IMG/VR virus record: IMGVR_UViG_3300045988_170948
Location: 1-19,425 of that record
Origin: a virus
Length of the DNA: 19,425 nucleotides
Strand: one strand, 5' to 3'
Part shown: positions 115-19,425 of the stretch, piece by piece
Position numbering within the stretch: position 1 is the stretch's first letter
How the letters are laid out: every line of letters begins with the position of its first letter
Translations under genes and position numbers: made by a program
Notes under the pieces: generated by a model
The model's database searches: none
Told to the model about the DNA's origin: nothing
What the model saw: only the letters and a program-made list of their open reading frames with translations

Positions 115-115
115 T

Positions 116-2522: not shown

Positions 2523-2525
2523 CTA

Positions 2526-2573: not shown

Positions 2574-2652
2574 TTTGATAGTATACAAATATATAAAAAT
2601 AGAAGATTGTAACAATATTACATTTTTAAAATAGCTTATATATTAATAAAAA

Positions 2653-3243: not shown

Positions 3244-3244
3244 A

Positions 3245-3856
3245 ATGTATAGTGGAGTTATATATCTAGCAACAAATCTTATAAATGGCAATAAATATGT
3301 AGGACAAACAAATAATTTCTTGAGAAGAAAGAATGAACATAAATACAGTTCTAATCTTACATATTTTCATAGAGCGATTAGGAAATATGGATTCAATAAC
3401 TTTAAATGGGAAATTCTTCAAATCTTTTGTTGTTCTTCTACAGAATTATTGAAAAGACAACTAAATAATGCAGAAATTAAATATATTCAGTTATTTGATA
3501 CATTAAATAATGGTTATAATTTAAATGAAGGTGGAGGTTCTAATACTGGATTTAAACACAGTGAAGAATCTAAACACAAAATGTCTTTAAAACAGTCTGG
3601 AAGAGTATTAAAGGATGAAACAAAATTAAAGTTAAGAGAATGTAGATTGGGAACTAAACAAACTGAACAGCAGAAAGAAAAAGTAAGTAAACGTATAATT
3701 ATGACAGATATTAATGATACTTATATATGCACTTGGAAATCTGCTATGGACGCTGAAAGAAACGGAAATTTTGATCATAGTGCTATTATAAAATGTTGCA
3801 AAAATAAACAAAACTATCATAAAAATTTTAAATTTAAGTATGAACAAATTAACTAA
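3245..3856 (+). mobile_element. Free-standing GIY-YIG homing endonuclease gene 1
   Basis: GVIYLATNLINGNKYVGQT (GIY..YVG), RRKNEH, AEIKYIQLF..NGYNLNEGG and a NUMOD3-like GFKHSEESKHKMS are present. The C-terminal tail is basic and looks DNA-binding. The gene is inserted between protease and scaffold, starting 2 nt after the protease TAG and overlapping the scaffold start by 17 nt. It has no in-frame TGA. Confidence 0.85.
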
Positions 3857-4451
3857 ACTGAGAATCGAACTTAGTAAACTCTTAGCAAAATTTAACGATG
3901 TTAAGACTAGTGCTGGAGTTCTAACTTACGATGGTAGTGAGGATGAGGATCTAAGGGCAGGTATGAGTGTATATACAATGGATACTGATACTGGCGAATA
4001 TGCACCTGCTGCTGATGGTGAGTATGTTACCGAAGATGGCAAAACGATTGTTGTTAAAGACGGTAAAGTAGAGTCCATTACTGATCCTAAAGCTGTAGTA
4101 GATCCTGAAGAAGACAGGACTGTTGAGGTTGATGCTGCTTGTGGAACTAAGAGAGTAAAAGCTGAGGAAGTTGCTGATCCTGCTGTTGAAACAGACGGTG
4201 TTAAAGAAACTGAGACTGATGCAATCGACGCTATTCATCGCGAAATTAATGAGCTCTATGATATTGTAGATAAGCTTGTTAAGAAAGTAGCAGAACTTGA
4301 AGGAAAGTCAGAAGCTACTGAAAAGACTGTAGAAAAAATGAGTAAGATGAGTGCTGCTTTTTCAGCAGAGGAAACACTCGAAAATAAAACAACTGCTCCT
4401 ATAAGTGGAATAGCAGAAATAGATAGAAAGCTTAAAAACTTTATTGGTTAA
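3840..4451 (+). CDS. Capsid scaffolding protein (putative)
   Basis: Acidic protein directly upstream of the major capsid gene. It carries a GEY..EDGKTIVVKDGKV motif and a C-terminal helical, coiled-coil segment (IHREINELYDIVDKLVKKVAELEGK). Confidence 0.55.
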   Translation: MNKLTKLRIELSKLLAKFNDVKTSAGVLTYDGSEDEDLRAGMSVYTMDTDTGEYAPAADGEYVTEDGKTIVVKDGKVESITDPKAVVDPEEDRTVEVDAACGTKRVKAEEVADPAVETDGVKETETDAIDAIHREINELYDIVDKLVKKVAELEGKSEATEKTVEKMSKMSAAFSAEETLENKTTAPISGIAEIDRKLKNFIG

Positions 4452-4472
4452 TTTATAAAATTTTAAATAATT

Positions 4473-5378
4473 ATGGCAAATAGTCCTGTAATGACAACTC
4501 TTCCTGCTTATGTGGAGCAAAGACGTCTCCCTCTTATTAAGGAAGCTGTTTTAAAAGCTAAGAGTGCAAGTTTGTTCAATCTTCAAACAGATATTAAAAC
4601 TGATGCTGCTCTTAACCTGTTATCTACCGATGTTCAGTTCGGTGATGGTCTTACTTGTGGTTGGGATGAGGCTGGAACTCAGACTCTTTCTCAGAGAATT
4701 CTTAAGACTGGTAATATTAAGATTAATATGGCATATTGCGATAAGGCTATGCTGAAATACTGGACTCAGTATGCAGTTAAGGTAGCCGCTGGTCAGAAGA
4801 CTCTTCCTTTTGAAGAGGATTTCGTAAATGCTGTTGTAGAGAACGTAAAAGAGGCTATTGAGGTAGCTATCTGGCAGGGTGATACGGCTTCAGAAACTAA
4901 TAACTTGAAGTATTTTGATGGTCTGCTTAAGATTCTTGCTGCTGATAATGGTACTGTAGATGTAACAATTGCTGGAACATCTGCCTATACTGACATTATG
5001 GCAGTTTATAATGCAATTCCTGAGAAGGTTCTGGATGGTGCTTCTATCTTAGTTGGTGCCGATATGTTCCGTAAGTTCGTAAATGAACTTGTTGAGAAGA
5101 ACTATTTCCACTATAGCGGAGAGAGCCTTAATGGTGAGATTTATCTTCCTGGTTCACAGGTTAAGGTTATTGCTGTTAATGGTCTTAATGGAACTGGTAA
5201 GATTGTTGCTGGTCAGTTAGACAAGAACTTCTTCTATGGTGTAGATATGATGAACGATGAAGAGAAATTCGAATTGTGGTATTCACAGGATTTCCGCGAG
5301 TTCAGATTAGCTATTGAATTTAACGCTGGTGTACAAGTTGCTTTCCCTGACGAAGTAGTATTAGGCGCCAAGGCTTAA
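4473..5378 (+). CDS. Major capsid protein (HK97-fold type)
   Basis: 301 aa, positioned after protease and scaffold. The N-terminal PAYVEQRRLPLIKEAV and the C-terminal NFFYGVDMMNDEEKFELWYSQDFREFRLAIEFNAGVQVAFPDEVV look like phage capsid family proteins. The four Trp visible in the quoted motifs (CGWDE, KYWTQ, AIWQG, ELWYS) are all TGG, and there is no in-frame TGA. Confidence 0.8.
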   Translation: MANSPVMTTLPAYVEQRRLPLIKEAVLKAKSASLFNLQTDIKTDAALNLLSTDVQFGDGLTCGWDEAGTQTLSQRILKTGNIKINMAYCDKAMLKYWTQYAVKVAAGQKTLPFEEDFVNAVVENVKEAIEVAIWQGDTASETNNLKYFDGLLKILAADNGTVDVTIAGTSAYTDIMAVYNAIPEKVLDGASILVGADMFRKFVNELVEKNYFHYSGESLNGEIYLPGSQVKVIAVNGLNGTGKIVAGQLDKNFFYGVDMMNDEEKFELWYSQDFREFRLAIEFNAGVQVAFPDEVVLGAKA

Positions 5379-5418
5379 TTTCAATAGATTTTATTAACTT
5401 ATAAATGATATTGAAATT

Positions 5419-5943
5419 ATGGCTTGTTTAATAACTATCGCAGGAATCACACTTGATTGCCAACCTTCATTAGGTGGTATCAAACAGGTTTGGATTACTC
5501 AGTATTCAGATGTTAAGAGTGTAACGGTTGATCCTGAGAGCAATATGATTTCAGCTATTACTCTTGAGTCTTCAGCTAAATGGTATAACTACCAATTTAG
5601 AAAGGCTACTGGTTCTCTAACCTCAACTTTAAATGTAGATGAAAGTGCTGGTGTTAATTATGTAAGTAATGAGCTTGCTCTTGTATTTACAAAGATGGAA
5701 ACAGCAAAACGAGTAGAGATTGCAGCTTTATCAATTGGTCAGCTTGCAGTTGTTGTTGAAGACAGCAATGGTAAGTATTGGTTCTTAGGTAAAGATGATT
5801 ATGTAAGCGCTTCCGCTGGTACGGGTGTTACTGGTACTGCTAAAGGTGATCAGAATGCTTATACTCTGACACTTTCAACAGATTCAGATTCTTATCCTTA
5901 TGAGTTATCTGCAGAAGCTATCCAAAGCGTTGTAGGTGCTTAA
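5419..5943 (+). CDS. Putative major tail (tube) protein or other abundant virion protein
   Basis: 174 aa. The pattern GGIKQVWI...F..A.....T.......G..Y....L.LVF.......R.....L...QLAVVVEDSNGKYWFLG resembles tail tube families I recall. A strong terminator follows immediately, as expected for a highly expressed structural gene. Confidence 0.4.
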   Translation: MACLITIAGITLDCQPSLGGIKQVWITQYSDVKSVTVDPESNMISAITLESSAKWYNYQFRKATGSLTSTLNVDESAGVNYVSNELALVFTKMETAKRVEIAALSIGQLAVVVEDSNGKYWFLGKDDYVSASAGTGVTGTAKGDQNAYTLTLSTDSDSYPYELSAEAIQSVVGA

Positions 5944-5953
5944 TAACAGAAAG

Positions 5954-5990
5954 AGGGGCGAGTATTAATTTACTTGCCCCTTATTTTGTT
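5954..5990 (+). terminator. Rho-independent terminator
   Basis: AGGGGCGAGTA-TTAATT-TACTTGCCCCT gives an 11-bp stem with one G:U pair, followed by TATTTTGTT. Confidence 0.8.
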
Positions 5991-6034
5991 TATATACCAC
6001 ATAATGAATAATTTATATTTTATAGAAAAATAAT

Positions 6035-8170
6035 ATGGCAAACGAAACTGAAAAGACAATTCTTCCCTATCTTAATGTCCTTGAAGTCGAAACAATAGAT
6101 AAGTCAAATGTGACTAAAGTTATTGTTATTGACAAGGATGATGAAGTTAAGGTTATGGATGGTTCTCAGTTAGGATCAAGTAACTATCAAGATCTTCAAT
6201 TTAAGCCTGAAATCAATGGGGTTGAATTAAATGGAAATATTCCTTCTAAAGAATTAGGAATTCCTTCTATTGAAGATATTGACAATCAAATTACAGAGAA
6301 ACTTATTGACTATCCAACTAAAGAAGAAGTTACTGTAGAAATAACTGAAGCTACTTCTGGCAAACAAGATATATTAGTTCAAGGTAATGGTATAGTAATT
6401 GAGGATAATACTATTTCAGCAGATTATTCTACAATTAATAATAAGCCATTTTTAAATGGAGCAGAGCTTATTAATCCTACAGTAATAGTTCCATCAATTC
6501 AGATTAAAGCTATCCCTGATAAAGTAACAATAGCTCCAATATTTGGAAATCAAACTGGAGACGCTGAAGAACTTCCTGTTTATAATACTGAAACTAATTC
6601 TGCAGGTCTAATTAATGCTGATTTATATGCTCAGTTATCAGATAAATATACAAAGGCTGAGATTGACAATCTAAATGCAGAAATTAATAAAGCTATAAAT
6701 GCAAAACAGGGAACATTAACGGCAGGAGCTAATATATCTATTGTTGATAATGTAATATCTGCATTCCAGAATCACTTCTTCTTAAATTTAGATATTAATG
6801 ATCCAGATAGACAGTTAGAAATATATAACTTCATTAGAAGTAATATGGACTTCTATTTATTTGGGCAGATTACATATAATGAAGATACAATAGTAGTTCC
6901 AATGACTGTAGTAGAGCATACTAATACTATTGATTTATATGGATACTATTTTAAAGATGATGGGGTATTAGTAACTATTAATGCTATTATAGTTAATAAT
7001 GGCCAAATGACTGTTAAGACCACAGAAGTTGATCTTACTAATAAAGGTTATACTAAAGATGAAGTAGATGAGAAACTTGCAACTAAGCAAGGTGTATTTA
7101 CTCCACAAGCTCCATTAGCTTTTAATGAAGATAAATCCCAATTATCTGTAGATTTATCTGGATACCAACCAGTTGGTGATTATGCTTTAAAGAGTGATAT
7201 TCCAACTAAAGTTAGTGAGCTTACTAATGATTCTAACTTTGTAACTGAAGCAGAGGTTTCTGGAGATTTAGCAGGTAAAGCAGATAAGACTTATGTTGAT
7301 GAGCAACTTGCTACTAAACAGCCTGTAGGAGATTATGCAACAAAAACTGAACTTGCTGGTAAAGCTGATTCTTCTGTAGTAGAATCTTTATCTACTCAAG
7401 TAGCAACTAATACTTCAGATATATCAATTATTAAAACAAAGCAAGAAGAAGATGGAGATAAGATTGATTCTCTTGATAAAGAGATGGCTACTAAGCAAGA
7501 TTTACTTGTAAGTGGAACTAATATCAAAACAATCAATAGTCAATCTTTACTTGGAGAAGGTAATATAGTAATTGATAGTGGTTCTAATATTCCATATCTA
7601 TTTATAAATTCCTCAACCCATCTTTCTGGAGATTTCGCTGCTGTTAAGAATGCTATAGCTAATAAAACACCATTTGAGCTTTATTATGTAAATATTCTAG
7701 GTTATGGTGATATAGCAGCTCCAGAAGTATGTTTTGTTTCAGGAGAAAATATTCAAGCTACTTTCCATTTTGAAAGTACGACAGCTAATCATACTGTAGT
7801 TCAAACTACTATTACTCCAACTGGAGTATCTGCTGATACTAGTTATCATAGTTATCAAGAACAGTTAGTTTCTGGTACTAATATAAAGACTATTAATGGT
7901 GAAAGTATTTTAGGAGAAGGTAATCTTGAAATATCTGGAGGTGGAGGGACTACTGACTATACTCAGTTAACAAATAAACCTCAGATTAATTCTGTTGAGT
8001 TATCTGGCAATAAGAGTTTATCAGATTTAGGTATTCAGCCTGCTGGAAACTATATTGAAGCTGGAACTGGAACCCAACCTCAAATAAATACGATTACTGT
8101 TCTAACTCAAGCAGAGTATGATAGTTTATCAACTAAAGATCCTAATACACAATATTTAATTGTAGAATAA
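6035..8170 (+). CDS. Tail fibre protein with internal repeats
   Basis: 711 aa. A repeated 24-aa motif L(L/V)SGTNIKTIN(S/G)(Q/E)S(L/I)LGEGN occurs at nt 7502-7573 and 7864-7933. Repeated KP.ING.EL.GN.....LGI and TK.EL..KAD motifs are typical of phage fibres. No TGA. Confidence 0.8.
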   Translation: MANETEKTILPYLNVLEVETIDKSNVTKVIVIDKDDEVKVMDGSQLGSSNYQDLQFKPEINGVELNGNIPSKELGIPSIEDIDNQITEKLIDYPTKEEVTVEITEATSGKQDILVQGNGIVIEDNTISADYSTINNKPFLNGAELINPTVIVPSIQIKAIPDKVTIAPIFGNQTGDAEELPVYNTETNSAGLINADLYAQLSDKYTKAEIDNLNAEINKAINAKQGTLTAGANISIVDNVISAFQNHFFLNLDINDPDRQLEIYNFIRSNMDFYLFGQITYNEDTIVVPMTVVEHTNTIDLYGYYFKDDGVLVTINAIIVNNGQMTVKTTEVDLTNKGYTKDEVDEKLATKQGVFTPQAPLAFNEDKSQLSVDLSGYQPVGDYALKSDIPTKVSELTNDSNFVTEAEVSGDLAGKADKTYVDEQLATKQPVGDYATKTELAGKADSSVVESLSTQVATNTSDISIIKTKQEEDGDKIDSLDKEMATKQDLLVSGTNIKTINSQSLLGEGNIVIDSGSNIPYLFINSSTHLSGDFAAVKNAIANKTPFELYYVNILGYGDIAAPEVCFVSGENIQATFHFESTTANHTVVQTTITPTGVSADTSYHSYQEQLVSGTNIKTINGESILGEGNLEISGGGGTTDYTQLTNKPQINSVELSGNKSLSDLGIQPAGNYIEAGTGTQPQINTITVLTQAEYDSLSTKDPNTQYLIVE

Positions 8171-8171
8171 T

Positions 8172-9293
8172 ATGAATATTAGAGATGATTTAAAAACATT
8201 TTATGTAGGTGACAGACAAGGTACTGCTATTTATGTCGGCAGTACCAAAGTCTGGCCTATCAATCCTTGTAATCCACAAATAGTTACAGTTGCTAATCCA
8301 GTTCCTCAAGGTACTACAATAGTTGATCCTTGCAGTTATGTATTTAGCAGTTATGATGGAACTATAAATGATATACAAAGGGATTGAATGGGTAGAGGAT
8401 CTGACCTTACTTCTACAGTAATTAGTTTTACTGCTGATTTAAGTGAATTAGCCCTTAATATAGATGGTGTACCTCTTTGTAGTATTATAGGTTCTGCTCA
8501 AACATATGCAGATGTAAAGTTAAATAGTGGAGATTTAAGTAGAAAAGGAGGGTTTTTTAAAACATCTCATTTTGATCTAAATAACCAGGAGATTACTAAT
8601 CTTAATGAAGCATATGGAAGATGGTCTAGTGAATCTCAATTTTGGGGTCAAACAATACATAGTGCCACTTTATCTAATGTTAAAATACCTACAACTACTA
8701 AAGAAGTAAGTGCAAATTATTTATTTATTGGAGTAAAAATAGATAATAATGATTTCTCTGTAATGAATAATTTTCAAAATCTTGTATTAGTAGATCCAAA
8801 ATGGGCATTTGCAGAGACAGCTGACGGAGCTACTAATATAGATAATATAACGATTAATATTCCCTTTAAAGGAGATTGTAATCATATGTTTCATAGAGCA
8901 TTATATCTAACAACTATTCCAAGTAATTTTATCTTTACTGGAATTACAGATATAAGCTATATGTTTAGTACTTGTAGTAGATTAACAGCTACACCAGAAA
9001 TAGATTGTCATCTTGTTACAGATTGTACTAGTTTTGCTGCATCTTGTCCAGAATTAGTCACTGTAGGAGCTTTAAATGGATTAGGAGAAGGTTTTAAAAC
9101 TGCTAGTCTTCTATATTTTGCTCAATCTCCAAATTTATCTACGGATTCATTACAAACTATAGCAGAATCTATTGGTGAGTGTATATTTAGTGGTTCTGCT
9201 ATATCCTTTAAATCTACTGCATATGATAAACTTACAGATGAACAGAAATCATTAATCGCTTCAAAGAATTGGAGCATAAATCGAGTTGCATAA
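8172..9293 (+). CDS. LRR-type (BspA/DUF285-like) receptor-binding candidate 1, 373 aa if TGA 8385-8387 is Trp
   Basis: ORF-track 8172-8387 and 8388-9293 share a frame and are joined by GAT-TGA-ATG-GGT. The C-terminal part carries ..MF....L..IP-type leucine-rich repeats (CNHMFHRALYLTTIP, ISYMFSTCSRLTATPEI). The C-terminus LTDEQKSLIASKNWSI is paralogous to the end of 10710-11678. Confidence 0.6.
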
Positions 9294-9295
9294 TT

Positions 9296-9532
9296 ATGAA
9301 AATTGAAATTAAAGAAAAATATAAAGTAGTTAGTCCAGAAGAAGGTTATATACTTACTAACTATAAAGAAGGAATGGATATTAAATTATACAGTTCATTT
9401 ACTGAATGTATCTGTCCTTTAAGTTGCGATTTAGAGCATCTATCAGAAGTCTCTTTAGATAAGGATGCTGAATATAAAGAATTAGCTATTAAAGCTTCTA
9501 AAGAGTATGAGGAATCAATAAAAGTTAGATAA
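9296..9532 (+). CDS. Hypothetical protein (78 aa)
   Basis: The ATG at 9296 sits in a TAA-TT-ATG junction with the upstream stop. The ORF-track start at 9269 would overlap the upstream gene. No recognisable motif. Confidence 0.5.
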   Translation: MKIEIKEKYKVVSPEEGYILTNYKEGMDIKLYSSFTECICPLSCDLEHLSEVSLDKDAEYKELAIKASKEYEESIKVR

Positions 9533-9534
9533 TT

Positions 9535-10194
9535 ATGATTATACTTAAGAATACTAAAAATACACAAACTTTCTATGTAAGTAAGAAATGTGGTATTGAA
9601 TCTGGACAACTTCCTGTTGGTTCTTATACTAAGATTGAAGCAGATGAAAGATTCCAACCTAAAGGTAATTACATTTCTGAAGAGAAAGCAGAAGAGTTAA
9701 TTAATACTAAAGTAACAGAAAGTATTGAAGATCAAGTTCCTCCTTTAGTAGATCAATCTATAGATGCTAAGCTTGTTCCAATTAATACTGAGATTACTAA
9801 TCTTAAAGGGGAAGTTGAGGAGTTAGAAACTTCTAAGATGGAAGTATTCCAAGCTAATCAACCTCTATCTTTACATAGAAATGGAGAAGGTTTGCAACTA
9901 TCTGTAGATTTAAGTAATTATGCAACTAAAGCAGAAATTCCTGATACTAGTGATTTTGCTACTAAAGAAGAGCTTACAGCTGTAGAGAATAAGATTCCTG
10001 ATGTATCTGGATTAGCTACTAAAGATGAAGTTGCACTTAAAGCAGATAAAAGTGAGTTATCAAACTATGTAACTACAGATGCATATAATACAAAGATGAC
10101 AGAGTTAGATGGAGAAATCTCAGCAATTCAAGCTCAGATTGGTAATATTTCAACTACTCTTGATACAATTAATGGTGAAATTCCAAATGAATAG
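9535..10194 (+). CDS. Tail fibre-like protein (coiled-coil and short repeats)
   Basis: Repeats [49 protein letters not shown] resemble those of the 711-aa fibre. The start sits in a TAA-TT-ATG junction. Ends in TAG. Confidence 0.6.
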
Positions 10195-10708
10195 AGTATT
10201 AACAAATTATCCTAACTATAGTGTATCTTCTACAGGAGATGTATATAGTAACCCATTGACTTTTAAAGATTCTATTGGAAGAACCAGAAAACAAATACAT
10301 AAAAAGCTAAAACAGCATATAGATAAATATGGCTATAATTATGTAATTCTAGTATCTGGCTTAGATAAACCTAAAGCTATTAAAGTTCACAGACTAGTAG
10401 CAGAAGCATTTATTCCAAATCCTGACAATCTACCATATGTTAACCATATAAATGAAAATAAGACAGATAATAGGGTAGAAAATTTAGAATGATGTGATGC
10501 AAAGTATAATAATACATATGGAACTAGAATAAATAGATGTATTGATAAAATTAGTAAACCTGTAGGGCTATTTATTAATGATTTACTAGTTAAAACATAT
10601 AAAAATGCAATTGAAACATCAATAGATGGGTATACTCATAGTAGAGTTATAGATTGTCTTAAAGGAAGAACAGACACTTATAAAGGGGTAAAATTTAAAT
10701 ATATCTAA
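10187..10708 (+). mobile_element. Free-standing HNH homing endonuclease gene (NUMOD4-like N-terminus plus HNH_3-like core)
   Basis: [21 protein letters not shown] followed by [37 protein letters not shown](10490-10492)-CDAKYNN. The TGA sits exactly on the Trp of the conserved NLEW motif. The frame continues to TAA 10706-10708. The gene overlaps the upstream fibre gene by 8 nt. Confidence 0.85.
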
Positions 10709-10709
10709 T

Positions 10710-11678
10710 ATGGCAAATACAATTTCTGATAAATTAACGTATCTTGAAGGTACTAAAAGTGCCATTAAAGATGCTATTGTAGCTAAAGGTGTTGCTGTAT
10801 CAGATTCAGATACCTTTAGAAGCTATGCAGATAAGATAGGACAGATTTCTGGAGGTGGTGGAGGAAAGATTAATTTAAATGATTATGGATTAACATTTGC
10901 ATATTCTAGTATGACACAAGAGCAATATAATAATATAGAATATTCTCTTCCAGATAATATAAATCATTGATTTGATGGGACTAATTTCATATCTACAATA
11001 GATATATCAAGTCATATTGATCTGTCTAAAGTATATGACGCATCATATGCCTTCCAAAACACATATAATATATATATTGATAATATAAGAACTAGTGTTG
11101 GGGATTCGTACGCATTTTCTGGATTTCAAGGCATACTAAATAATTTAGAATTAATTAATACCTTATCCTCTAGTTGAAATTATGCAACAAGAACATTCTT
11201 TAATGCTTCTAATTTACCAACTACTTTAAAAGTGATAAATGAAGTTGATACTGGTGTATCATCTTTACAATTTTTCTTTTATTCTGTTAGCAGTAATGTT
11301 CCTGAAATTGAAGTTATTAATGGACAACTATCTTTATATTATTACTTTAGTGCATATAATGAGGGTGTTACAACAGTAGGAAAAATTAAATTAAATAATT
11401 GCACATTAACAGAAGATCTAAATAAAACTTCAATATGTGCATCTGCTAATACTACTGTTACTTATTTTGGGGGTGTTGAAGGAGCTGATAAAAGTATGAA
11501 TTTAGCAAATTTTAGAGCACTAAATAGTCAATCAGTAACTGATATTATTACAAATGTTAGTGATTTAACTGGAAAGGATACCAAAACTTTAACTTTTTAT
11601 ACTAACGTTTATAATGCACTTACTGAGGAACAGAAATCATTAGCTACATCTAAAAACTGAACTTTAGCATCAGCATAA
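10710..11678 (+). CDS. LRR-type receptor-binding candidate 2 (322 aa, three TGA=Trp)
   Basis: ORF-track pieces 10710-10970 and 11232-11660 share a frame and are joined through TGA 10968, 11175 and 11658 with no TAA/TAG. The N-terminus ISDKLTYLEGTKSAIKDAIVAKGVAVSDSDTFRSYADKI is a common fibre N-terminal motif. The C-terminus LTEEQKSLATSKN-TGA-TLASA aligns with ..SKN-TGG-SI of 8172-9293. Confidence 0.7.
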
Positions 11679-11682
11679 TTTT

Positions 11683-11731
11683 TGTCTATTTTTATTTTTT
11701 CTTAGTACTTTGAGTGAGTAAAAACTTGACA
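11683..11731 (+). promoter_or_regulatory. Conserved intergenic element, copy B
   Basis: TGTCTATTTTTATTTTTTCTTAGTACTTTGAGTGAGTAAAAACTTGACA starts 4 nt after the upstream TAA and ends 103 nt upstream of ATG 11834. Confidence 0.55.
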
Positions 11732-11758
11732 TTAAAGGAGGCTTAGGTCTCCTTTAAT
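11731..11758 (+). other. Perfect 10-bp hairpin abutting element copy B (5' leader structure or terminator)
   Basis: ATTAAAGGAG-GCTTAGGT-CTCCTTTAAT. The first base is the last A of TTGACA. It is followed by TATTTTAAT. Confidence 0.5.
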
Positions 11759-11803
11759 TATTTTAATACATTAGTAAATTGGTTTATATTTTAAGAAAAA
11801 GAT

Positions 11804-11832
11804 ATGTAAAAGTAATGTAAAACTATGTAAAA
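11804..11832 (+). repeat. Three tandem ATGTAAAA units (start-stop minicistrons) directly upstream of ATG 11834
   Basis: ATGTAAAA occurs at 11804-11811, 11815-11822 and 11825-11832, spaced 11 and 10 nt apart. Confidence 0.6.
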
Positions 11833-11833
11833 T

Positions 11834-12226
11834 ATGAATTATACTTTATTAATGCAAAATACAACTACTAAAGAAGTTTATACATTTGATCTTGAAAATC
11901 AGAATTATTCTGAGAATATCTACTATAAGTTTGATATTACACTTCAAGAAGGAATGAGAGACGGTGAATATCAATATATTTTATTTACTAATCCAAATAA
12001 ATTTCAAGTTATAGTTGATGTAAACAATCCATTTAGATCAGAGTTATATGGCAATCCAGTTATTCTGGTTACATATAATAATACTCTTACTAATGGTACT
12101 CAGATATTAGTTGCTGGTAAACCAATACCTATATTGGGAACAGGATTAATAAGAATTGGAGATTATGAGAATAATAATTATCAATACGACAAATCTAATA
12201 CATACGTAAGTTATGAGCGAAAATAA
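11834..12226 (+). CDS. Hypothetical protein (130 aa)
   Basis: Intact ORF ending in TAA, and the first gene after element copy B. No recognisable motif. Its end overlaps the portal start by 14 nt. Confidence 0.5.
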   Translation: MNYTLLMQNTTTKEVYTFDLENQNYSENIYYKFDITLQEGMRDGEYQYILFTNPNKFQVIVDVNNPFRSELYGNPVILVTYNNTLTNGTQILVAGKPIPILGTGLIRIGDYENNNYQYDKSNTYVSYERK

Positions 12227-13304
12227 AACAAAAGTTCAGTTAAGTGCTATTGATCCATTTATTGCAAGTAATATCGTATTACCTACAGAAACTAAAGTAA
12301 GAGGAAAAGATTATGTAATGTGGGGAGAAGATAACAAATATCCATTATATCTATGAGATTTATACTTAAATGTTGCTACTCTCCAATCTATTATTAATGG
12401 TTCTGCTGACTTTATTGTTGGTAATGATGTTAAATGTAATGCTCCAGGATTTGAAGTAGTTGTAAACAAGAAAGGTGAAACAATAGTTGATATAATGAGA
12501 AAAATCACTATTGATAAGATGATATTTGGAGGTTATGCTATCCAAGTAATTAGAGATATGCTTGGAAGAGTTGCAGAGATCTATCATATTGATTTTATGA
12601 ATGTAAGGTCAAGCGAAAAGAATGATATATTATATTATGCAACTGATTGGACAGCTTGGTCTGTAAAAGCTATAAAATATCCAAAATTTGGAGCTGCTGA
12701 TGAAAATCCAGCTAGTATATTTTATAATAAAGGTTATATAACAAGAGGAGTATATCCTATTCCTGTTTATGGAGCTGCTATTTTATCTTGCGAAACTGAG
12801 AAAAATATTAATGAATTCCATTTAAATAACATCAATAATGGATTTATGGGTAATCTTATTATTAACTTTAATAATGGGGAACCTACAGATGAAATTAGAG
12901 AGGAGATTGAGAGGAATATTAATGAGAAGTTCTCTGGTTATCAGAATGCTGGCAGAATATTGATTTCATATAATGCAGATGAGGCAAATAAGACTACTAT
13001 TGAAAGATTAGATTCTGATGATTTTGATGAGAAATATCAATCGTTATCTGAGAGAACAAGAGATCAAATATTCTGTGCCTTCAGAGCTAATCCTTCGTTG
13101 TTCGGTTTAAACTATAGCTCAGGATTTAATGAAAATGAGTTTAATGAAGCATTTAAGCTATATAATCGTACTTTTGTACGCCCAATACAATCAGAAATTT
13201 GTGACTCATTTGATAAAATCTTCGGCATTAAGAATAGTATTACTATTGAACCATTTAGTTTAACTCCAAAAGGAATGTCAGACAATGCAGAAAATGTTGA
13301 ATAA
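12213..13304 (+). CDS. Portal protein (364 aa, one TGA=Trp)
   Basis: ATG 12213 is in frame with ORF-track 12495-13304 through TGA 12354-12356. MSENKTKVQLSAIDPF...VMWGEDNKYPLYL-W-DLYLNVATLQSIINGSADFIVG together with FHLNNINNGFMGNLIINF matches the N-terminal and core pattern I associate with phage portal proteins. Confidence 0.7.
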
Positions 13305-13947
13305 TTATACAGTGTACTGCCATAAGAATATAGCTGATAATAAATTATATTTTGGAATAACATCACTTACTTTAAATAATAGATGGGGAACTAAAGGTCA
13401 AGGTTACAAGAATAATCTTTATTTTAGCAGAGCAATTAAAAAATATGGTTGAGATAATTTTGAGCATATTATAATTAGAGATAATCTTCCAGAAGCTTGT
13501 GCTAAGACTTTAGAAAAGATTCTGATTTATAAGTATAATACTAGAAATCCAAAATATGGGTATAATTTAACTGATGGAGGAGACGGTACTTGTGGATATT
13601 CTTTTTCACAAGATTATAAAGATAGTCTTAGAATTATAAGATCAGGAGAAAATAACTCATTTTATGGTAAACAGCATTCAGATGAAAGCAAGCGTAAAAT
13701 GAGGGAGGCAAGATTAGGCAAAACTCCTTGAAATAAAGGTATGAAACTCTCAGATAAAGAAAAACAACTAATTTCAGAACGTCAGTGCAAAAAAGTATAT
13801 AAGTATGATTTAGATGGTAATTTTATTTGTGAGTATAAATCAGCTAAGGAAGCTGGAGAGAAGAATAATGTAGATTCTTCTAGTATATCTAGATCTTGTA
13901 GAAAAAATAAACCCTGCAAAAATTATAAATATTATTATGGAATATAG
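13294..13947 (+). mobile_element. Free-standing GIY-YIG homing endonuclease gene 2 (two TGA=Trp)
   Basis: MLNNYTVYCHKNIADNKLYFGITS (GIY..YFG); AIKKYG-TGA(13450)-DNFEH; LEKILIYKYNTRNPKYGYNLTDGGDG; NUMOD3-like HSDESKRKMREARLGKTP-TGA(13729)-NKG. The gene overlaps the portal end by 11 nt and the next gene's start by 11 nt. Confidence 0.85.
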
Positions 13948-14614
13948 AAATGTACTATTAATATCTGAAGATTATATAAAATCAGAATCCAATTTAGACA
14001 ATAATGTTTCTGGTAAATATCTTCAGTCAGCAATTAAACTTGCACAAGATATTGAGCTTCAGTCATTAATTGGAACTAAGCTCTTAGAAAAGATTCAGAA
14101 ATTAGTAATTGATTGAAAAGACCCAAATAAACCAGTTCATCCAATAGAACCTCCTATTTATGATCCTACTTCTATAGATGACCCAGAAAATCATAGATAT
14201 AAAGAATTGCTAGATTACTATATTCAGCCTTATTTACTTTATCAAGTATTAAGTGAGATTACTATACCTATTTCGTTTAAGCTTAGTAACTTTGGTGTTA
14301 TGAGGACTGATGATGAGAAAGATTTAACTTCTGATATTAATCAAGTTAATCTTATTAAGAAATATTATAGAGATAAAGCAGATTTCTTTAAAACAAGATT
14401 ACAAAATTGGGTAATTACATATTATAATGATTTTCCTGAATTGTATTCTTATAAACCTCTTAAAGATATGTATCCAAATATGTATTCAAGTTCATCTTGC
14501 ACTATTTGGTTAGGTGGAGCTAGAGGTAAAGGTTGGAGATATAATTCTTGTGAAGGTCCTCTGCAAAGAGCTTATGATTTCCCTTCAAGTGATAACAATA
14601 AAAAGAGTAAGTAA
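13937..14614 (+). CDS. Putative head-tail connector/adaptor protein (225 aa, one TGA=Trp)
   Basis: ATG 13937 is in frame with ORF-track 14207-14614 through TGA 14114-14116. The N-terminus ISEDYIKSESNLDNNVSGKYLQSAIKLAQDIELQSLIGTKLLEKI resembles head-tail adaptor N-termini. The position after the portal gene supports this. Confidence 0.4.
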
Positions 14615-14615
14615 G

Positions 14616-15041
14616 ATGACGTATTTTGAATTAATAAACAATTTAAAAGCTTGTGCTCTTGAAGAACCCAATATTAATTTTGTAGGAAGTAAGGATATAT
14701 ATGAACTTAATAGTATCCCAACTATTGAATATAATGTATTTTATATAACTCCAAATACATTTAATATGGATGAGGATACTATTACTTACTCTTTAAATCT
14801 CTATTTTATAGCAAGATGGGATGAGACTGATAATAATCAGCTTGAAGAGCAATCAGCTGGAATATTAGCATTAACTAATATAATTAACCGATTTAATAAC
14901 CAATATCCAGAAGTTGATATTTCTTATCCTTTAATTTTTACTCCATTTTATCAGAAGTTCAAAGATATTTGTACTGGAATATTTGTTAGAGTTGATTTAG
15001 CTGTAGACAACACTCTGGGTACTTGTTCTGATAATATGTAA
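14616..15041 (+). CDS. Hypothetical virion or morphogenesis protein (141 aa)
   Basis: ATG 14616 lies 2 nt after the upstream TAA. The ORF-track start at 14514 would overlap the previous gene by 100 nt. No motif recognised. Confidence 0.5.
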   Translation: MTYFELINNLKACALEEPNINFVGSKDIYELNSIPTIEYNVFYITPNTFNMDEDTITYSLNLYFIARWDETDNNQLEEQSAGILALTNIINRFNNQYPEVDISYPLIFTPFYQKFKDICTGIFVRVDLAVDNTLGTCSDNM

Positions 15042-15694
15042 TGGAAAATAAATTAAACTGGTTTGGAAAGGTATTAGAATGAGTAGATAAATATGGACTG
15101 TGGAAAATAATTAAAGGTGGATTTGGATTTATATTTATTTCTTATGTAATAATTATAAGTACTAATCCAGGAATAATATATGATAAAGTTGTAAGTTATA
15201 TAGAAACAGTTCATAATACTAATCAAGTAATACGACAAGAAGCAGATCTTAAGGTTAGATATATTCTTAAAGATCTTTTAAATGATACGAATGCAGATAG
15301 AGCTTGAGTTATTGAGTATCATAATGGCACTTCAGGATTAGGAGGACTTCCATTCACTTATGGAATTATGAATAGTGAAGAAACAGAACCTGGAGTTGCT
15401 CCAGTTTCAAGTCATTATAAAGACTTCCTATTATCTGATTATTTATTTATATTAGAAACATCTAAAAAAGGAGGATGATTTGGAGATGTTGAAGATATAA
15501 AGGAATTAGATAGAAGAATGTACTATACATTTAAATCTAATGATGTTAATAAGATTGCAATATTCTATTTAAAATCAGAAGATAGAGATATTGGAATTTT
15601 AGGCTTATCTTATTGTGATAATGAGATGCCAGTTGATACTTGAGTAAAACTAAGAGATGCAGGAATTAAAGTAAGTATAATTTTAAATAAATAA
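15041..15694 (+). CDS. Membrane-anchored protein (217 aa) with four TGA=Trp codons; possible GAF-like globular domain; first gene of the lysis cassette
   Basis: Absent from the ORF track because TGA at 15080, 15305, 15476 and 15641 splits it into pieces under 60 aa. It begins at a TAATG junction with the upstream gene and ends in TAA 15692-15694. It has one N-terminal hydrophobic helix (GGFGFIFISYVIIISTNPG). The C-terminal part (ADRAWVIEYHNG...KIAIFYLKSEDRDIGILGLSY) loosely resembles a GAF fold. Confidence 0.65.
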
Positions 15695-15697
15695 GTT

Positions 15698-15859
15698 ATG
15701 AAATATTGGATGAAATATTTAATAGCAATAGTAATTATAATCTTAGTATTTTTAATGGTAAAAGTAATTCCATTTTGGATTACATTAGTACTCATAGCAC
15801 TTGGTGCAGGATGTCATTTATTTTACCGTTATACTATGCTTAAAGATATTATTAAATAA
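15698..15859 (+). CDS. Holin candidate (53 aa, two TM helices)
   Basis: MKYWMKYLIAIVIIILVFLMVKVIPFWITLVLIALGAGCHLFYRYTMLKDIIK has two hydrophobic helices and a charged C-terminus. It lies directly upstream of the endolysin and shares a TAATG junction with it. Confidence 0.55.
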   Translation: MKYWMKYLIAIVIIILVFLMVKVIPFWITLVLIALGAGCHLFYRYTMLKDIIK

Positions 15860-16308
15860 TGAAATATTTTACTATTAGTGAATTAACAAGATCTGATACA
15901 GCTTCTATTAAGAAGATAGATAATACTCCAAATAAAGAGATTACTGAACACCTTATAGAGTTAGTCGAGAAACTTTTAGACCCATTAAGAAGTGATTGGG
16001 CAGAGTATTGTGATGTTAATCGGTTGGGAAATCCAGCAATAAGTGTGAATTCAGGTTATAGATGTAATAAGCTTAATAAAGCTGTAGGAGGATCTTTGAT
16101 ATCTGCTCACCTAACAGGATATGCGGCAGATATAATTCCAAGTAACGGCCAAATGAAAGAATTTCAGGTTTGGATTACTGAAGCTATTGAAAAGTATGAT
16201 TTTGACGAATGCTTTATAGAAAGAAGTAGTACTGCTCACTGAGTGCATATTGCTTTATATAGTATTAAAGGATTACAACGAAGAAAGAAAGGTAATTTAT
16301 ATGTATAG
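15859..16308 (+). CDS. Endolysin, zinc peptidase M15 (Peptidase_M15_3-like), one TGA=Trp
   Basis: [28 protein letters not shown] matches the SxHxxGxAxD metallopeptidase core. The frame continues through TGA 16240-16242 (STAH-W-VHIALY) to TAG 16306-16308. Confidence 0.85.
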
Positions 16309-16891
16309 TGTATATGTTCATTTAAACAAGATTAATGGTAAGAAATATATTGGAATTACTTGTAAGAAGCCAGAGATACGATGGGCAAACGGTCTTGGCT
16401 ATAGAAAACAGCCATTTGAAAATGCTATTAAAAAATATGGATGAGATGGATTTGAACACATTATAGTTAAAGAAGGATTACCAGAAGCTTGTGCTAAAAC
16501 ATTAGAGAAGATTCTTATTTATAGATATAATACTCGTAATCTGAAATACGGTTATAATGCTACAGACGGAGGTGATGGCACATTAGGAATTACATTTACT
16601 CAAGAAAGAAAAGACAAGATAAGAGCTAAAAGTATTGGAAGACATCCATCAGAAGAAACTAGGAAAAAGATGAGTGATAGCCAGAAAGGAAGAGATTTGA
16701 GCTATTTAAATAATTCTTTTGGCAATAATCCAAGAGCTAAGAAAGTAGGTGCATATAAAGATGATATTCTTATTAAAGAATATGATTGTGCAGTTAGTGC
16801 TTCTTTAGATGTCGGAGTTCATAAAAATTCTATTGCTAAAGCAATTAGAGAAGGTTATAAAGTAAAAGGATTCAAGTGAAGATATGTTTAA
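16301..16891 (+). mobile_element. Free-standing GIY-YIG homing endonuclease gene 3 (two TGA=Trp), paralogue of gene 2
   Basis: [20 protein letters not shown]; AIKKYG-TGA(16442)-DGFEH; LPEACAKTLEKILIYRYNTRNLKYGYNATDGGDG; ..KVKGFK-TGA(16877)-RYV then TAA 16889-16891. It overlaps the endolysin end by 8 nt. Confidence 0.85.
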
Positions 16892-16899
16892 TAAAAAAG

Positions 16900-16926
16900 A
16901 AAAGGAGGGCAAATAACCCTCCTTTT
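16900..16926. terminator. Bidirectional rho-independent terminator between convergent modules
   Basis: AAAAGGAGGG-CAAATAA-CCCTCCTTTT gives a perfect 10-bp stem. An A-run lies on the left and a T-run on the right. It sits between + strand stop 16891 and - strand stop 16930. Confidence 0.85.
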
Positions 16927-16929
16927 TGT

Positions 16930-17070
16930 TTATTCCATTATCTCAAATAATTTCTCATCTTTAGGTATTAATTCTCCTGTTTGTAAGTCTACTAAAAACT
17001 TACTATTTTCTGGTATTACATATACATAATACACTCCATTTATACATACTTTATAGGTTTGGTATTTCAT
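16930..17070 (-). CDS. Small hypothetical protein (46 aa)
   Basis: MKYQTYKVCINGVYYVYVIPENSKFLVDLQTGELIPKDEKLFEIME*. The ATG lies 1 nt after the upstream stop. The ORF is too short for the ORF track. Confidence 0.4.
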   Translation of the reverse strand: MKYQTYKVCINGVYYVYVIPENSKFLVDLQTGELIPKDEKLFEIME

Positions 17071-17071
17071 A

Positions 17072-17212
17072 TTAATCAGTATATGTTGCATTAGTAATTT
17101 CTGGTTTTGGCATTTCTTCTACTTCTTCCCAAACTAAACCTCTATTCTGGTTTTCTAGTTGAACTATTCTGTATTCTAGTTCTTCAAGCTTTTTAAATAA
17201 ATGATCATCCAT
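17072..17212 (-). CDS. Small hypothetical protein (46 aa, coiled-coil-like)
   Basis: MDDHLFKKLEELEYRIVQLENQNRGLVWEEVEEMPKPEITNATYTD*. It is tightly packed, 2 nt after the upstream stop. Confidence 0.4.
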   Translation of the reverse strand: MDDHLFKKLEELEYRIVQLENQNRGLVWEEVEEMPKPEITNATYTD

Positions 17213-17214
17213 AA

Positions 17215-17376
17215 TTAATCAAATTTAGAAATAAACATATAATCTTTATTTTTTAATACTTTATCTATAATATCACCAAATCTTTTAGTAGCCTCTTTAC
17301 ATTCGAGCATTCATTTATCCAATTCTTTAATATACTCTTCTGTTTGTTTTATTGTTTCTTTAATATCACTTTCCAT
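17215..17376 (-). CDS. Small hypothetical protein (53 aa if TGA 17313-17311 is Trp; otherwise 21-aa and 31-aa ORFs)
   Basis: MESDIKETIKQTEEYIKELDK-W-MLECKEATKRFGDIIDKVLKNKDYMFISKFD*. The ATG lies 21 nt downstream of element copy D. Confidence 0.4.
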
Positions 17377-17396
17377 AATTAAAATATTTTAATAAA

Positions 17397-17446
17397 TGTC
17401 TATTTTTTACTCAACTAATGTATATAGATAAAAATAAAAATAGACA
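17397..17446 (-). promoter_or_regulatory. Conserved intergenic element, copy D (on the - strand)
   Basis: The - strand reads TGTCTATTTTTATTTTTATCTATATACATTAGTTGAGTAAAAAATAGACA. It begins 2 nt after the helicase TAG and points at the three small - strand genes. This copy has perfect 11-bp terminal inverted repeats (TGTCTATTTTT / AAAAATAGACA). Confidence 0.55.
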
Positions 17447-17448
17447 TA

Positions 17449-19167
17449 CTAATTTTTAAAGACATACTTTTTACCTATAATAGTATATCCATAAGATCTG
17501 TTTCCATTCACTGATTTTTTAGTTACCTTAACTTCATAATATTTTGTAATATCAGTAGCTTTAGCATTAGTTTTATTAACTAAATCATAAGCTTTTTGTA
17601 GTATCTTTTTAATATCAGTATTAGAATACCACATACCTAAAGTTATATCTTTATTAAGTTTATTTGCTACTTTATTATCTACAGATTTATCTGAAGTTTT
17701 AATAAGTTCATCTTTTATTTTAGTAATACAGTATTTTAGAGTGGCCATTTTATTGAATCCAAGTTTAGTAATAGCATCCATTAACCAAGGGTATTTAATA
17801 AGAGCATCATCTAATTTTGGGGTGTTTACCTTATATAAGGTTTCATATTCCTCTCTTACTTCTTTAATTATATCTTTAAATGCTTTTGTTTTAGTATTTA
17901 GATCTATTTTTATAGAATTATCATATTGTTCTACCACTTTATTAAATCCTTTATTAATATATTCCTTAGAAAGATTAGCTCTAGCAGAATACAGTCCCCT
18001 AGATACTTTAAAATTAAATAAATCAATTTTAGCCATATTAGGGTCAAATTCAAATACATCATCCCAATTTAATTTAATGTATGCATCAGAAGTAAATTCT
18101 CTAAGTTTCTTTTTAGCTATCTCTGGAAGTTTATTGTATGCTTCTACAGCAATTTTAGTTTCTTCAATATTCTGGATATTAAGCTTTTTAAATTCTTCAT
18201 AAGATATATCAGCATATCTTGTTGTAGAATAAATGTGAGTTATCCAATTAATATATTTACTATTTCTAATTCTACCAGCAATCTGCTGTATAGAAGTTGA
18301 TATATCAAGTAATGTATTAGCTTTACTTGGATCAGATATAATTATTATCCTTCCATTTTCATCATAAATATCTGAACCTTCAAATACAGTTGAAGTTAAT
18401 AAGTTTATTTTCTTAGGTTCATCTAAGACTGTTGAATTAGGAATTGACAGTTTAGTTTTATTGTTTTTGGAATATATAACTCTGGTATTATTAGATGTTA
18501 ATTTGGCTTTCTTAATAAGGTTCTTTATAAAGTCTACTGAATTAACGAATATGTAGGCGTTACCTTCAACCTGTCCGTTTAAAAATCCATTTATAAGTTT
18601 AATAGTAGAAGCTTCTACATTATCACATTTAACAGTTTGCACTTTTACATCTATAACATCATCCCATTCCTGCTTTACTAATTCTAAATCTTTTAATTCA
18701 TCTAATACAAACTCTTCCTCTAAAGGTGTTGCGGTCATAAATGTAAAATTACCAAATAATTTATAATATTTAAGCACTGATTGAATAGCAGAGCTTCTAA
18801 AGCTATACTGATTAAAGAGAATATGATATTCATCAATTAAAATGCTAAACTCTTTAGGATTAATTGCAGAAATAACTTTATAAAGAGAATCATAGGTAAC
18901 AATGATTTTAGGGCATTTAACACTATCTACATAATCTTTAATCTCTTTAATAGTAACACCAGCATAAACTCCAAATATCTTCTCAGTACGTCTTTCATTT
19001 GGATATTGTTGAAGTTTATTTTCAACTAAGCTAGTAAATGGAACACAAATAACATAAGGCTTATTGCATTCAATTGCCATTGAAGTTCCTCCACATCCAA
19101 CTTTTCCTTTATCAAATAAACAGTTAGTTGGCAACTCATTAATAATTTCATTTAAATATGTTTTCAT
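17449..19167 (-). CDS. Superfamily 2 DExH-box helicase (572 aa)
   Basis: Motif I-like GKVGCGGTS, motif II LIDEYH, motif III MTATP and motif VI QQIAGRIRN are present. The five Trp visible in the quoted motifs (QEWDD, INWITH, LNWDD, YPWLMD, GMWYS) are TGG, and there is no in-frame TGA. Ends in TAG. Confidence 0.75.
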   Translation of the reverse strand: MKTYLNEIINELPTNCLFDKGKVGCGGTSMAIECNKPYVICVPFTSLVENKLQQYPNERRTEKIFGVYAGVTIKEIKDYVDSVKCPKIIVTYDSLYKVISAINPKEFSILIDEYHILFNQYSFRSSAIQSVLKYYKLFGNFTFMTATPLEEEFVLDELKDLELVKQEWDDVIDVKVQTVKCDNVEASTIKLINGFLNGQVEGNAYIFVNSVDFIKNLIKKAKLTSNNTRVIYSKNNKTKLSIPNSTVLDEPKKINLLTSTVFEGSDIYDENGRIIIISDPSKANTLLDISTSIQQIAGRIRNSKYINWITHIYSTTRYADISYEEFKKLNIQNIEETKIAVEAYNKLPEIAKKKLREFTSDAYIKLNWDDVFEFDPNMAKIDLFNFKVSRGLYSARANLSKEYINKGFNKVVEQYDNSIKIDLNTKTKAFKDIIKEVREEYETLYKVNTPKLDDALIKYPWLMDAITKLGFNKMATLKYCITKIKDELIKTSDKSVDNKVANKLNKDITLGMWYSNTDIKKILQKAYDLVNKTNAKATDITKYYEVKVTKKSVNGNRSYGYTIIGKKYVFKN

Positions 19168-19192
19168 AGTTGTAATAATTTTGGTTATTAAT

Positions 19193-19241
19193 TGTCTATT
19201 TTTATTTTATCTATACACATCAAGTGAGTAAAAATTTGACA
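19193..19241 (+). promoter_or_regulatory. Conserved intergenic element, copy C (points rightwards, away from the helicase)
   Basis: TGTCTATTTTTATTTTATCTATACACATCAAGTGAGTAAAAATTTGACA lies in the divergent region right of the helicase start. Confidence 0.5.
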
Positions 19242-19258
19242 CCTTAATGTTAAAAAGT

Positions 19259-19277
19259 GGCAGGATTTTCACCTGCC
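19259..19277. other. GC-rich hairpin; on the - strand it is followed by a T5 run (terminator or attenuator-like)
   Basis: GGCAGG-ATTTTCA-CCTGCC. On the - strand the hairpin is followed by ACTTTTTAAC. On the + strand no T-run follows. Confidence 0.45.
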
Positions 19278-19314
19278 TAGAAGTAGTAGAATTACTTGTT
19301 TTATTTTGATACTA

Positions 19315-19346
19315 CAAATATACAACAATTTTTCTCAATCTCCAAA
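19315..19346 (-). promoter_or_regulatory. Bacteroidota-type promoter (proximal) directed at the helicase gene
   Basis: The - strand reads TTTG (19346-19343), then 20 nt, then TATATTTG (19322-19315). This matches the -33 TTTG / -7 TAnnTTTG consensus. Confidence 0.55.
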
Positions 19347-19392
19347 TAATTTGGGTATTATTTTAATAAAAAATTATTTTTTCTTTACACTA

Positions 19393-19423
19393 CAAATATA
19401 ATAATAAATTTTTATTCTACAAA
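19393..19423 (-). promoter_or_regulatory. Bacteroidota-type promoter (distal), tandem duplicate
   Basis: The - strand reads TTTG (19423-19420), then 19 nt, then TATATTTG (19400-19393). It lies within a second copy of the + strand 12-mer ACTACAAATATA (19311-19322 and 19389-19400). Confidence 0.5.
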
Positions 19424-19425
19424 AC

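Follow-up and report, generated by a model that had tools for sequence, protein, structure and literature searches.

The IMG/VR virus record IMGVR_UViG_3300045988_170948 (positions 1 to 19,425; this whole stretch of 19,425 nucleotides is called the window hereafter) carries three adjacent + strand genes encoding a membrane protein (named TM217 here), a holin-like protein and an endolysin, the first and the last of which are crossed by in-frame TGA codons. The question raised by this locus is whether these codons reflect a special recoding of lysis functions, as a first-pass annotation of the sequence had proposed, or the code in which the whole phage is written. We consider the second answer to be the probable one: the region would be the lysis module of a tailed phage from the human gut, ~31.5 kb in size, that uses TGA as tryptophan (Trp) genome-wide, and the TGAs of its lysis genes would not be a local pile-up.

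The window is part of a ~31-32 kb phage present in many human-gut assemblies. Genes were called by sequence reading combined with code-4 open reading frame (ORF) calling, and codon usage was tabulated at two levels: (i) a composite genome of 31,531 bp assembled from the window, contig L001 and the related contig L007, for which all 39 genes were tabulated, and (ii) a family-level table covering ~70 loci of the phage group, with one representative per 90% identity cluster. The composite genome has a low GC content (~29%), with a GC content at third codon positions (GC3) of 16%. The whole window matched no deposited phage by megablast, nor did the capsid protein by tblastn, and the terminase TerL is at most 30% identical to that of any deposited phage.

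TGA as a tryptophan codon and the endolysin zinc site

On sequence evidence, TGA is a sense codon for Trp in this phage (genetic code 4). Among 10 strains sharing 85-98% nucleotide identity, TGA was replaced by TGG in 12 cases and TGG by TGA in 13, and TGA had no other partner; code 25 reads TGA as glycine. A relative that uses the standard code (L094) has TGG at the endolysin site where the window has TGA. The positions concerned are conserved: W128 and H130 are invariant in an alignment of 29 endolysin sequences, as are W89 and W146 in the TM217 family. Coverage of the + strand by ORFs increases from 63% with code 11 to 83% with code 4, which fuses fragments into genes of 780, 373, 363 and 322 aa, and the window read with TGA as sense is a long + strand array of phage genes. 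None of the 39 genes of the composite genome ends in TGA (30 end in TAA and 9 in TAG). When relatives of the endolysin are called with the standard code, the protein is cut immediately before Trp128, at 127 or 129 aa; standard-code pipelines thus annotate this enzyme as fragments missing a zinc ligand.

The use of TGA is nevertheless restrained with respect to composition. TGA accounts for 43% of the Trp codons of the composite genome, versus 72-96% of A-ending codons in every other NNA/NNG pair (p ~1e-11). This argues against a long adaptation to a native code-4 host and suggests that reading UGA as Trp carries a cost or is a recent trait. In-frame TGA and TGG show no difference in the base that comes after them (chi-square p=0.59), and thus no indication that contexts of weak termination were selected.

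Table 1. Positions of the lysis module and of other features in the window
Feature	Position	Strand	Remarks
TM217, predicted membrane-anchored GAF-fold protein	15041..15694	+	217 aa; 4 TGA, 2 TGG
TGA codons 14, 89, 146 and 201 of TM217	15080-15082, 15305-15307, 15476-15478, 15641-15643	+	TGA or TGG only in related strains
Holin-like protein	15698..15859	+	53 aa; two hydrophobic segments, charged C-terminus; 0 TGA, 2 TGG
Endolysin, Peptidase_M15_3 (LAS-type zinc peptidase)	15859..16308	+	149 aa; Pfam, PHROG and model
In-frame TGA, Trp128 of endolysin	16240..16242	+	in invariant W-x-H, two codons before His130
Predicted zinc ligands His84, Asp91 and His130 of endolysin	16108-16110, 16129-16131, 16246-16248	+	from alignments
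Helicase-like protein	17449..19167	-	572 aa; DEYH motif; 0 TGA, 5 TGG; weak Helicase_C_2 match (E 0.051)
Gene directly downstream of helicase-like gene	17215..17376	-	53 aa; sole Trp is TGA in 25/25 alleles
Tandem matches to Bacteroides-type promoter consensus TTTG-N17-23-TAnnTTTG	19315-19346, 19393-19423	-	just upstream of helicase-like gene
Capsid protein	4473-5378		0 TGA, 4 TGG
GIY-YIG homing endonuclease	16301..16891	+	196 aa; 2 TGA, 1 TGG; overlaps endolysin 3' end
Other homing endonucleases	3245-3856, 10187-10708, 13285-13947		
Tail-fibre protein, Phage_tail_C	6035-8170		711 aa; no tryptophan
Further Trp-free virion genes	3840-4451, 9296-10194, 11834-12226		

The genes of the module are tightly packed (Table 1), with TAATG overlaps joining the stop of an upstream virion gene to the start of TM217 and the stop of the holin-like gene to the start of the endolysin. 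The description of the module given by the first-pass annotation stood up in most respects. The gene opening the cassette indeed has 4 TGA among its 6 Trp codons (the two TGG being codons 7 and 21), and the TGA of the endolysin, placed by that annotation after the His/Asp motif ([10 protein letters not shown]) and right before V-H-I, is codon 128. The reading frames also bear out the truncations announced under standard decoding, in which the endolysin would be cut to 127 aa and the membrane protein would stop after 13 aa. The holin-like protein has no Pfam or PHROG match.

The assignment of the endolysin to the M15 zinc peptidases and its His/Asp motif are supported by Pfam (PF08291, 2.6e-14, 53.7 bits versus a 23.2-bit cut-off, residues 3-131) and by PHROG (phrog_894 'endolysin', 3.8e-26). 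The Streptomyces albus DD-peptidase 1LBU has His154 and Asp161 at the positions of His84 and Asp91. In the alignment of the family profile with the N-terminal domain of Sonic hedgehog (Shh-N), the W-x-H motif falls on H-I-H and Glu121 on the Glu of 'YYES', residues which we take to be the zinc-binding His183 and the catalytic Glu177. H84, D91 and H130 are invariant in the 29-sequence alignment. We therefore infer that His130 is the third zinc ligand, after His84 and Asp91, and Glu121 is the probable catalytic base. The expectation that the third ligand lies downstream of the TGA thus holds at the level of alignments, and the structural model agrees with it. This model, built with AlphaFold2 (AF2) using a homologue (P0001, 83% identical) as first row, has a predicted local distance difference test score (pLDDT) of 95; its top Foldseek match is 1LBU (E 2.8e-5), followed by VanY, LdcB, ChiX and hedgehog N-domains, so that the fold fits the LAS peptidases. 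Residues 127-132 and 143-148 form the final two strands of the model, and the 127-aa product, which would be deprived of both strands and of the third ligand, should be inactive. Conversely, TGA128 read as Trp would complete the invariant W-x-H motif and let His130 join His84 and Asp91 at the zinc site.

With the LAS-type M15 peptidases (1LBU, VanY/LdcB, ChiX and the L-alanoyl-D-glutamate peptidases of T5 and RB49), the endolysin shares the triad made of H-x6-D and a C-terminal His, the alpha/beta sandwich fold and a PF08291 score above threshold. It differs from them in being only ~20% identical to any solved structure, in having no cell-wall-binding domain and in encoding the Trp beside the third ligand by a reassigned stop codon.

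The endolysin gene is also a mosaic, in which near-identical N-terminal halves are combined with at least five divergent C-terminal modules (window; L004-L013, L098-L159); this indicates recombination inside the gene. Every C-terminal module retains TGA at the Trp preceding the third zinc ligand. A related M15_3 endolysin located on a crAss-like contig (L096, 4001-4405, with Crass_capsid adjoining) contains three in-frame TAG codons, one of them directly before the His that is the first zinc ligand, in parallel with the TGA that precedes the third ligand in the window.

Distribution of TGA among the genes

The composite genome contains 123 Trp codons (53 TGA and 70 TGG), and TGA is present in 23 of the 33 genes that contain Trp. 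The idea that recoded codons pile up in the lysis cassette finds no support in this count. TGA represents 5/11 Trp codons in the cassette versus 48/112 elsewhere (Fisher p=1.0 genome-wide; p=0.31 if only the window is counted). Pooled over representatives sharing less than 90% identity, the three lysis genes give 22/50, versus a baseline of 0.40 (p=0.54). The statement that TM217 has the highest TGA density of the window is correct for the number of TGA codons (4) and nearly so per length (1.84 per 100 aa, versus 1.89 for the 53-aa - strand gene at 17215-17376); it fails for the share of TGA among Trp codons, which is higher in the gene at 10710-11678 (3/3), in an HNH gene (1/1) and in the small - strand gene (1/1). 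Genome-wide, it is also exceeded in density by an HNH gene (5/5, 3.1 per 100 aa) and by a 112-aa membrane protein (3/4).

The per-gene table of TGA and TGG indicates uneven usage, and this use is gene-specific: it follows neither an early/late nor a lysis/non-lysis boundary (early and late classes being predicted ones). The helicase-like and holin-like genes are kept TGA-free, with 1/28 (Benjamini-Hochberg-adjusted p, BH, 3e-4) and 0/10 (BH 0.048) TGA among the Trp codons of the representatives, the former showing the strongest avoidance of all gene families. TGA abounds in homing endonucleases, in a tail gene and in a number of small genes that look early; the genes that significantly prefer TGA are p322 (18/24, 0.75, BH 0.007), HNH159 (13/17, 0.76, BH 0.043), s53 (6/6, 1.0, BH 0.033) and a 220-aa GIY-YIG gene (10/13, 0.77, BH 0.046). 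As a class, homing endonucleases have the top TGA share (15/22, nominal p=0.016). TM217 is borderline (12/17, 0.71, BH 0.053) and the endolysin is average (10/23, 0.43, not significant). The description of the helicase-like and capsid genes as code-neutral was accurate for the window (Table 1), and in the first of these two genes the avoidance extends across lineages: it is TGA-free in 30/32 alleles and nearly so across alleles down to 67% identity, one lineage having a TGA at the Trp matching codon 513 of the window gene. The holin-like gene has no TGA in 19/19 alleles. Thus, striking recoded stops in lysis genes can reflect a genome-wide code 4, and per-gene statistics are needed to pick out the genes that truly deviate, here the helicase-like and holin-like genes that avoid TGA, and the homing endonucleases and some tail genes that prefer it.

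Several points weigh against the view that the lysis TGAs simply follow the code of the genome. Trp128 of the endolysin is TGA in 26/26 distinct variants, which span five or more divergent C-terminal modules (p of roughly 0.01, were these independent), and Trp47 of the same protein is always TGG. Together with the strong avoidance of TGA by the helicase-like gene and the borderline richness of TM217, this fixed codon suggests selection on TGA placement. The genome table is itself a composite of two strains plus L001, and the gene-level tests treat related alleles and codons as independent, which makes them indicative only. Lastly, the assignment of the host is indirect, no CRISPR spacer or prophage link having been found.

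Host, decoding and timing

We infer that the host is a member of the Bacteroidota using the standard code. No Shine-Dalgarno sequence was detected upstream of any of 40 genes. The consensus TTTG-N17-23-TAnnTTTG was reportedly described in Bacteroides by Bayley et al. (2000), and the tandem pair upstream of the helicase-like gene represents its only matches in the window. In L007, all three matches (within 9485-9679) fall in the same divergent intergenic region of ~550 bp with correct orientations, and this region, located between the helicase-like gene and a rightward operon, is a probable early promoter region. Relatives of the endolysin in species-representative bacterial genomes are overwhelmingly found in Bacteroidales (best 46-48% identity), a related endolysin is carried by the crAss-like contig L096, and a tail protein has a weak BACON match. 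A 148-kb IMG/VR contig was considered as a possible prophage/host junction and rejected, as it links the small phage, through a shared fibre segment, with a large TGA-recoded phage rather than with a bacterial chromosome.

Earlier work on phages that read TGA as Trp is said to have been done by Ivanova et al. (2014). The code-4 gut phages described by Borges et al. (10.1101/2021.08.26.457843) form small clades such as Garnet, Amethyst and Topaz, and the window phage belongs to this known class of alternatively coded gut phages. Like them, it has a low GC content and a small genome (~31 kb, within the reported range of 14.7-35 kb), its in-frame TGAs align with Trp and are absent as terminators, 59% of its genes are recoded (reported range 26-71%) including structural and lysis genes, its host is probably a standard-code Bacteroidota, and it has a close TGA-free relative. 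As in 65% of their code-4 genomes, no suppressor tRNA is detectable, and the preferential recoding of homing endonucleases is shared with their Agate phages. Unlike in these phages, the lysis cassette is not preferentially recoded as a unit, TGA is absent from the holin-like gene but present in regulatory genes that look early, and there is no integrase. Given the divergence of TerL, the likeness is to be understood at the level of the class.

The alternative that survives best, and which we regard as unlikely, is the temporal gating proposed by Borges et al., in which the first gene of the phage is expressed in the standard code of its host and a later switch permits the expression of TGA-containing genes, so that the endolysin and the GAF membrane protein could not be made prematurely. 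The published proposal and the analogous recoded lysis genes speak for it (10.1101/2021.08.26.457843), as do the Bacteroidota-like features of the host and the overall under-use of TGA, which is expected if decoding is costly in a host possessing release factor 2 (RF2). Among the genes, those in favour are the almost TGA-free helicase-like gene, which apparently comes first behind the host-type promoters, p79, the TGA-free first gene of the rightward operon (0/14; 0/4 beside 1/28 for the helicase-like gene), TM217 with its high share of TGA and the endolysin with its constant TGA before the third zinc ligand. The same criterion turns against gating for other genes: p145, p102, HTH84 and TM112 (a DUF1360-like membrane protein), all right behind host-type promoters in the rightward operon, contain TGA, as does the 53-aa gene that directly follows the helicase-like gene and, in one lineage, the helicase-like gene itself. 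The holin-like gene and the late capsid gene are TGA-free, and the lysis cassette taken as a whole shows no enrichment. In lambda-type lysis, the endolysin does no damage from the cytoplasm before the holin has been triggered, so that lysis timing would not be controlled by gating the endolysin while the holin is left ungated.

The first-pass annotation had invoked the expression of a suppressor tRNA as the switch for late and lytic genes, and this part of the proposal was not borne out. ARAGORN found no tRNA in the window and 12 other loci, Rfam gave none at E<=1, and a relaxed ARAGORN search of the 31,531-bp composite returned low-score matches only, none with a UCA anticodon. No release factor or aminoacyl-tRNA synthetase was recognised among the gene products surveyed. 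The proposed switch is thus without a physical candidate in this genome. Such a result is not unusual, since a suppressor tRNA is detectable in only 35% of code-4 phage genomes (10.1101/2021.08.26.457843) and in only 13% of the TAG-recoded genomes of Dutch cohorts (PMC9610469). On these data, a timed code switch is possible but unlikely. If gating were true, the phage would offer a compact 31-kb system, devoid of suppressor tRNA, for asking how a phage changes the meaning of UGA.

A more specific scenario, to which we give still less credit, is that a phage of standard-code Bacteroidota without a suppressor tRNA needs UGA to be read as Trp for nearly all its genes, TGA128 and the TGA-rich TM217 then acting as a fail-safe. 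The decoding could come from a phage mechanism other than a tRNA, from a near-cognate tRNA-Trp of the host combined with the neutralisation of RF2, or from a suppressor that large TGA-recoded phages provide in trans on co-infection. Before the switch, on which lysis competence would hinge, the TGA-free helicase-like protein would be the only sizeable one made.

It is very improbable, in our opinion, that the host is a native code-4 bacterium which itself reads UGA as Trp, in which case TGA would have no regulatory meaning. This would account for the failure to find a phage tRNA, for the presence of TGA in nearly all modules including early-looking genes and for its absence at gene ends. Several lines of evidence are opposed to it: TGA makes up just 43% of Trp codons at a GC3 of 16%, when other A/G pairs have 72-96% A; the helicase-like and holin genes avoid TGA; and the promoter, ribosome-binding-site and endolysin-relative signals all point to Bacteroidota with the standard code. 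Known code-4 Mollicutes have no cell wall, while the phage keeps a peptidoglycan peptidase. Finally, the phage is frequent (99 blocks of the contig index list its helicase-like protein). In the human microbiome, bacteria with code 4 or 25 are few, at only 18 of 4,930 species-level genomes (PMC8153819).

The weakest alternative, namely that the in-frame TGAs are sequencing errors or marks of pseudogenes and that the truncated products are real, was rejected as having practically no chance of being right: these codons are stops under code 11 and several public pipelines did call truncated proteins of 127 or 129 aa, but identical TGA positions recur in dozens of independent assemblies, TGA alternates solely with TGG, the sequence 3' of each TGA is in frame and conserved (including the invariant His130) and coding density gains 20 points under code 4.

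The GAF-fold family, relatives and accessory genes

Modelling indicates that TM217 has a GAF fold and a membrane anchor, and it belongs to a large family without annotation. Besides an N-terminal transmembrane helix (~residues 23-46, from hydropathy), it comprises a long helix and a domain of GAF fold. The AF2 model, built with a homologue (P0121, 99% identical) as first row, has a pLDDT of 83, and Foldseek gave 267 matches in the PDB at E<=1e-3, with a target-normalised TM-score (TMt) up to 0.76; among the top matches listed, nearly all are GAF domains or GAF-containing proteins. At the sequence level, neither TM217 nor 10 remote relatives matched a GAF profile or any other Pfam family, and PHROG gave for the same proteins only weak matches to families without assigned function. 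Sequence searches against the PDB gave nothing meaningful for TM217 or for the helicase-like protein. A profile search collected 1,167 clusters of similar ~230-aa proteins at E<=1e-3.

In the window, the holin-like gene is the only gene separating TM217 from the M15_3 endolysin downstream. Elsewhere, a GAF protein directly precedes an M15_3 endolysin (L094) and an Amidase_2 protein (L194, from a 170-kb phage). A profile made of diverse GAF-family members was too divergent for a search of loci and a narrower one was used; it retrieved 24 loci, none with an M15_3 endolysin within 3 kb. A recognisable lysin stands beside the GAF-family gene in only one of these 24 loci (L194), and most of the large-phage members are without a recognisable adjoining lysin. 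No paper describing a GAF domain in a phage lysis cassette was found by literature search, and the TM217 family may be a new kind of lysis-associated protein.

A role of TM217 in lysis control is suggested as a hypothesis only, by analogy. Some holin regulators and antiholins, such as RI of phage T4, have a membrane anchor and a sensing domain. TM217 resembles them as a predicted single-pass membrane protein with a globular domain, encoded near an endolysin, in an order (GAF protein, then hydrolase) that recurs in L094 and L194. It differs from T4 RI by the lack of any sequence or fold relation, and from such regulators in general by a fold that is normally cytoplasmic and binds small ligands, and by the many large-phage members that are not beside a recognisable lysin.

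The closest point of comparison for the module as a whole is a ~33-kb relative (L094/L095), whose capsid, endolysin and GAF proteins are respectively 50%, 47% and 27% identical to those of the window phage. Nine complete genes of this relative were examined: they contain 26 TGG and no in-frame TGA, and end in TAA or TAG only. The GAF protein precedes the endolysin as in the window (L094, 3315-4974). We conclude from this TGA-free relative with the same order that the module functions without recoding and that recoding arose within the lineage of the window phage. After its endolysin, the relative encodes a 172-aa protein whose N-terminus resembles a lipobox and which has a membrane helix at its C-terminus, an architecture reminiscent of unimolecular spanins that hints at a Gram-negative host.

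The 148-kb contig mentioned above may be a chimera; in it, the small phage is linked at a fibre-gene segment to a large phage in which 23/33, 10/15 and 15/21 Trp codons are TGA. Large TGA-recoded phages (contigs of 85-170 kb; L160 1-13468, L161-L167; including IMG/VR UViG_3300045988_141593 and _156017) have this ~1.7-kb tail-fibre segment in common with one lineage of the small phage, at ~93% nucleotide identity. This segment points to a recent exchange between small and large phages, which probably share a host. No tRNA was found in the 20-kb pieces of large phage genomes that were examined.

Homing endonuclease genes are abundant and free-standing: four (three GIY-YIG and one HNH) lie in the 19 kb of the window, and the whole genome has seven or more. 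Their presence differs between strains. At the site occupied in the window by the GIY-YIG gene that follows the endolysin, other strains have a NUMOD1 endonuclease. In addition to the Trp-free tail-fibre and virion genes listed in Table 1, a 112-aa multi-pass membrane protein is encoded outside the window, upstream of the terminase genes (L007, reverse strand, 14431-14769), with TGA at 3/4 Trp codons. This protein shares the motif CxxC...W(W)IG with a DUF1360 protein of a 133-kb phage contig (L182), where the DUF1360 gene lies three genes downstream of a GAF-family gene.

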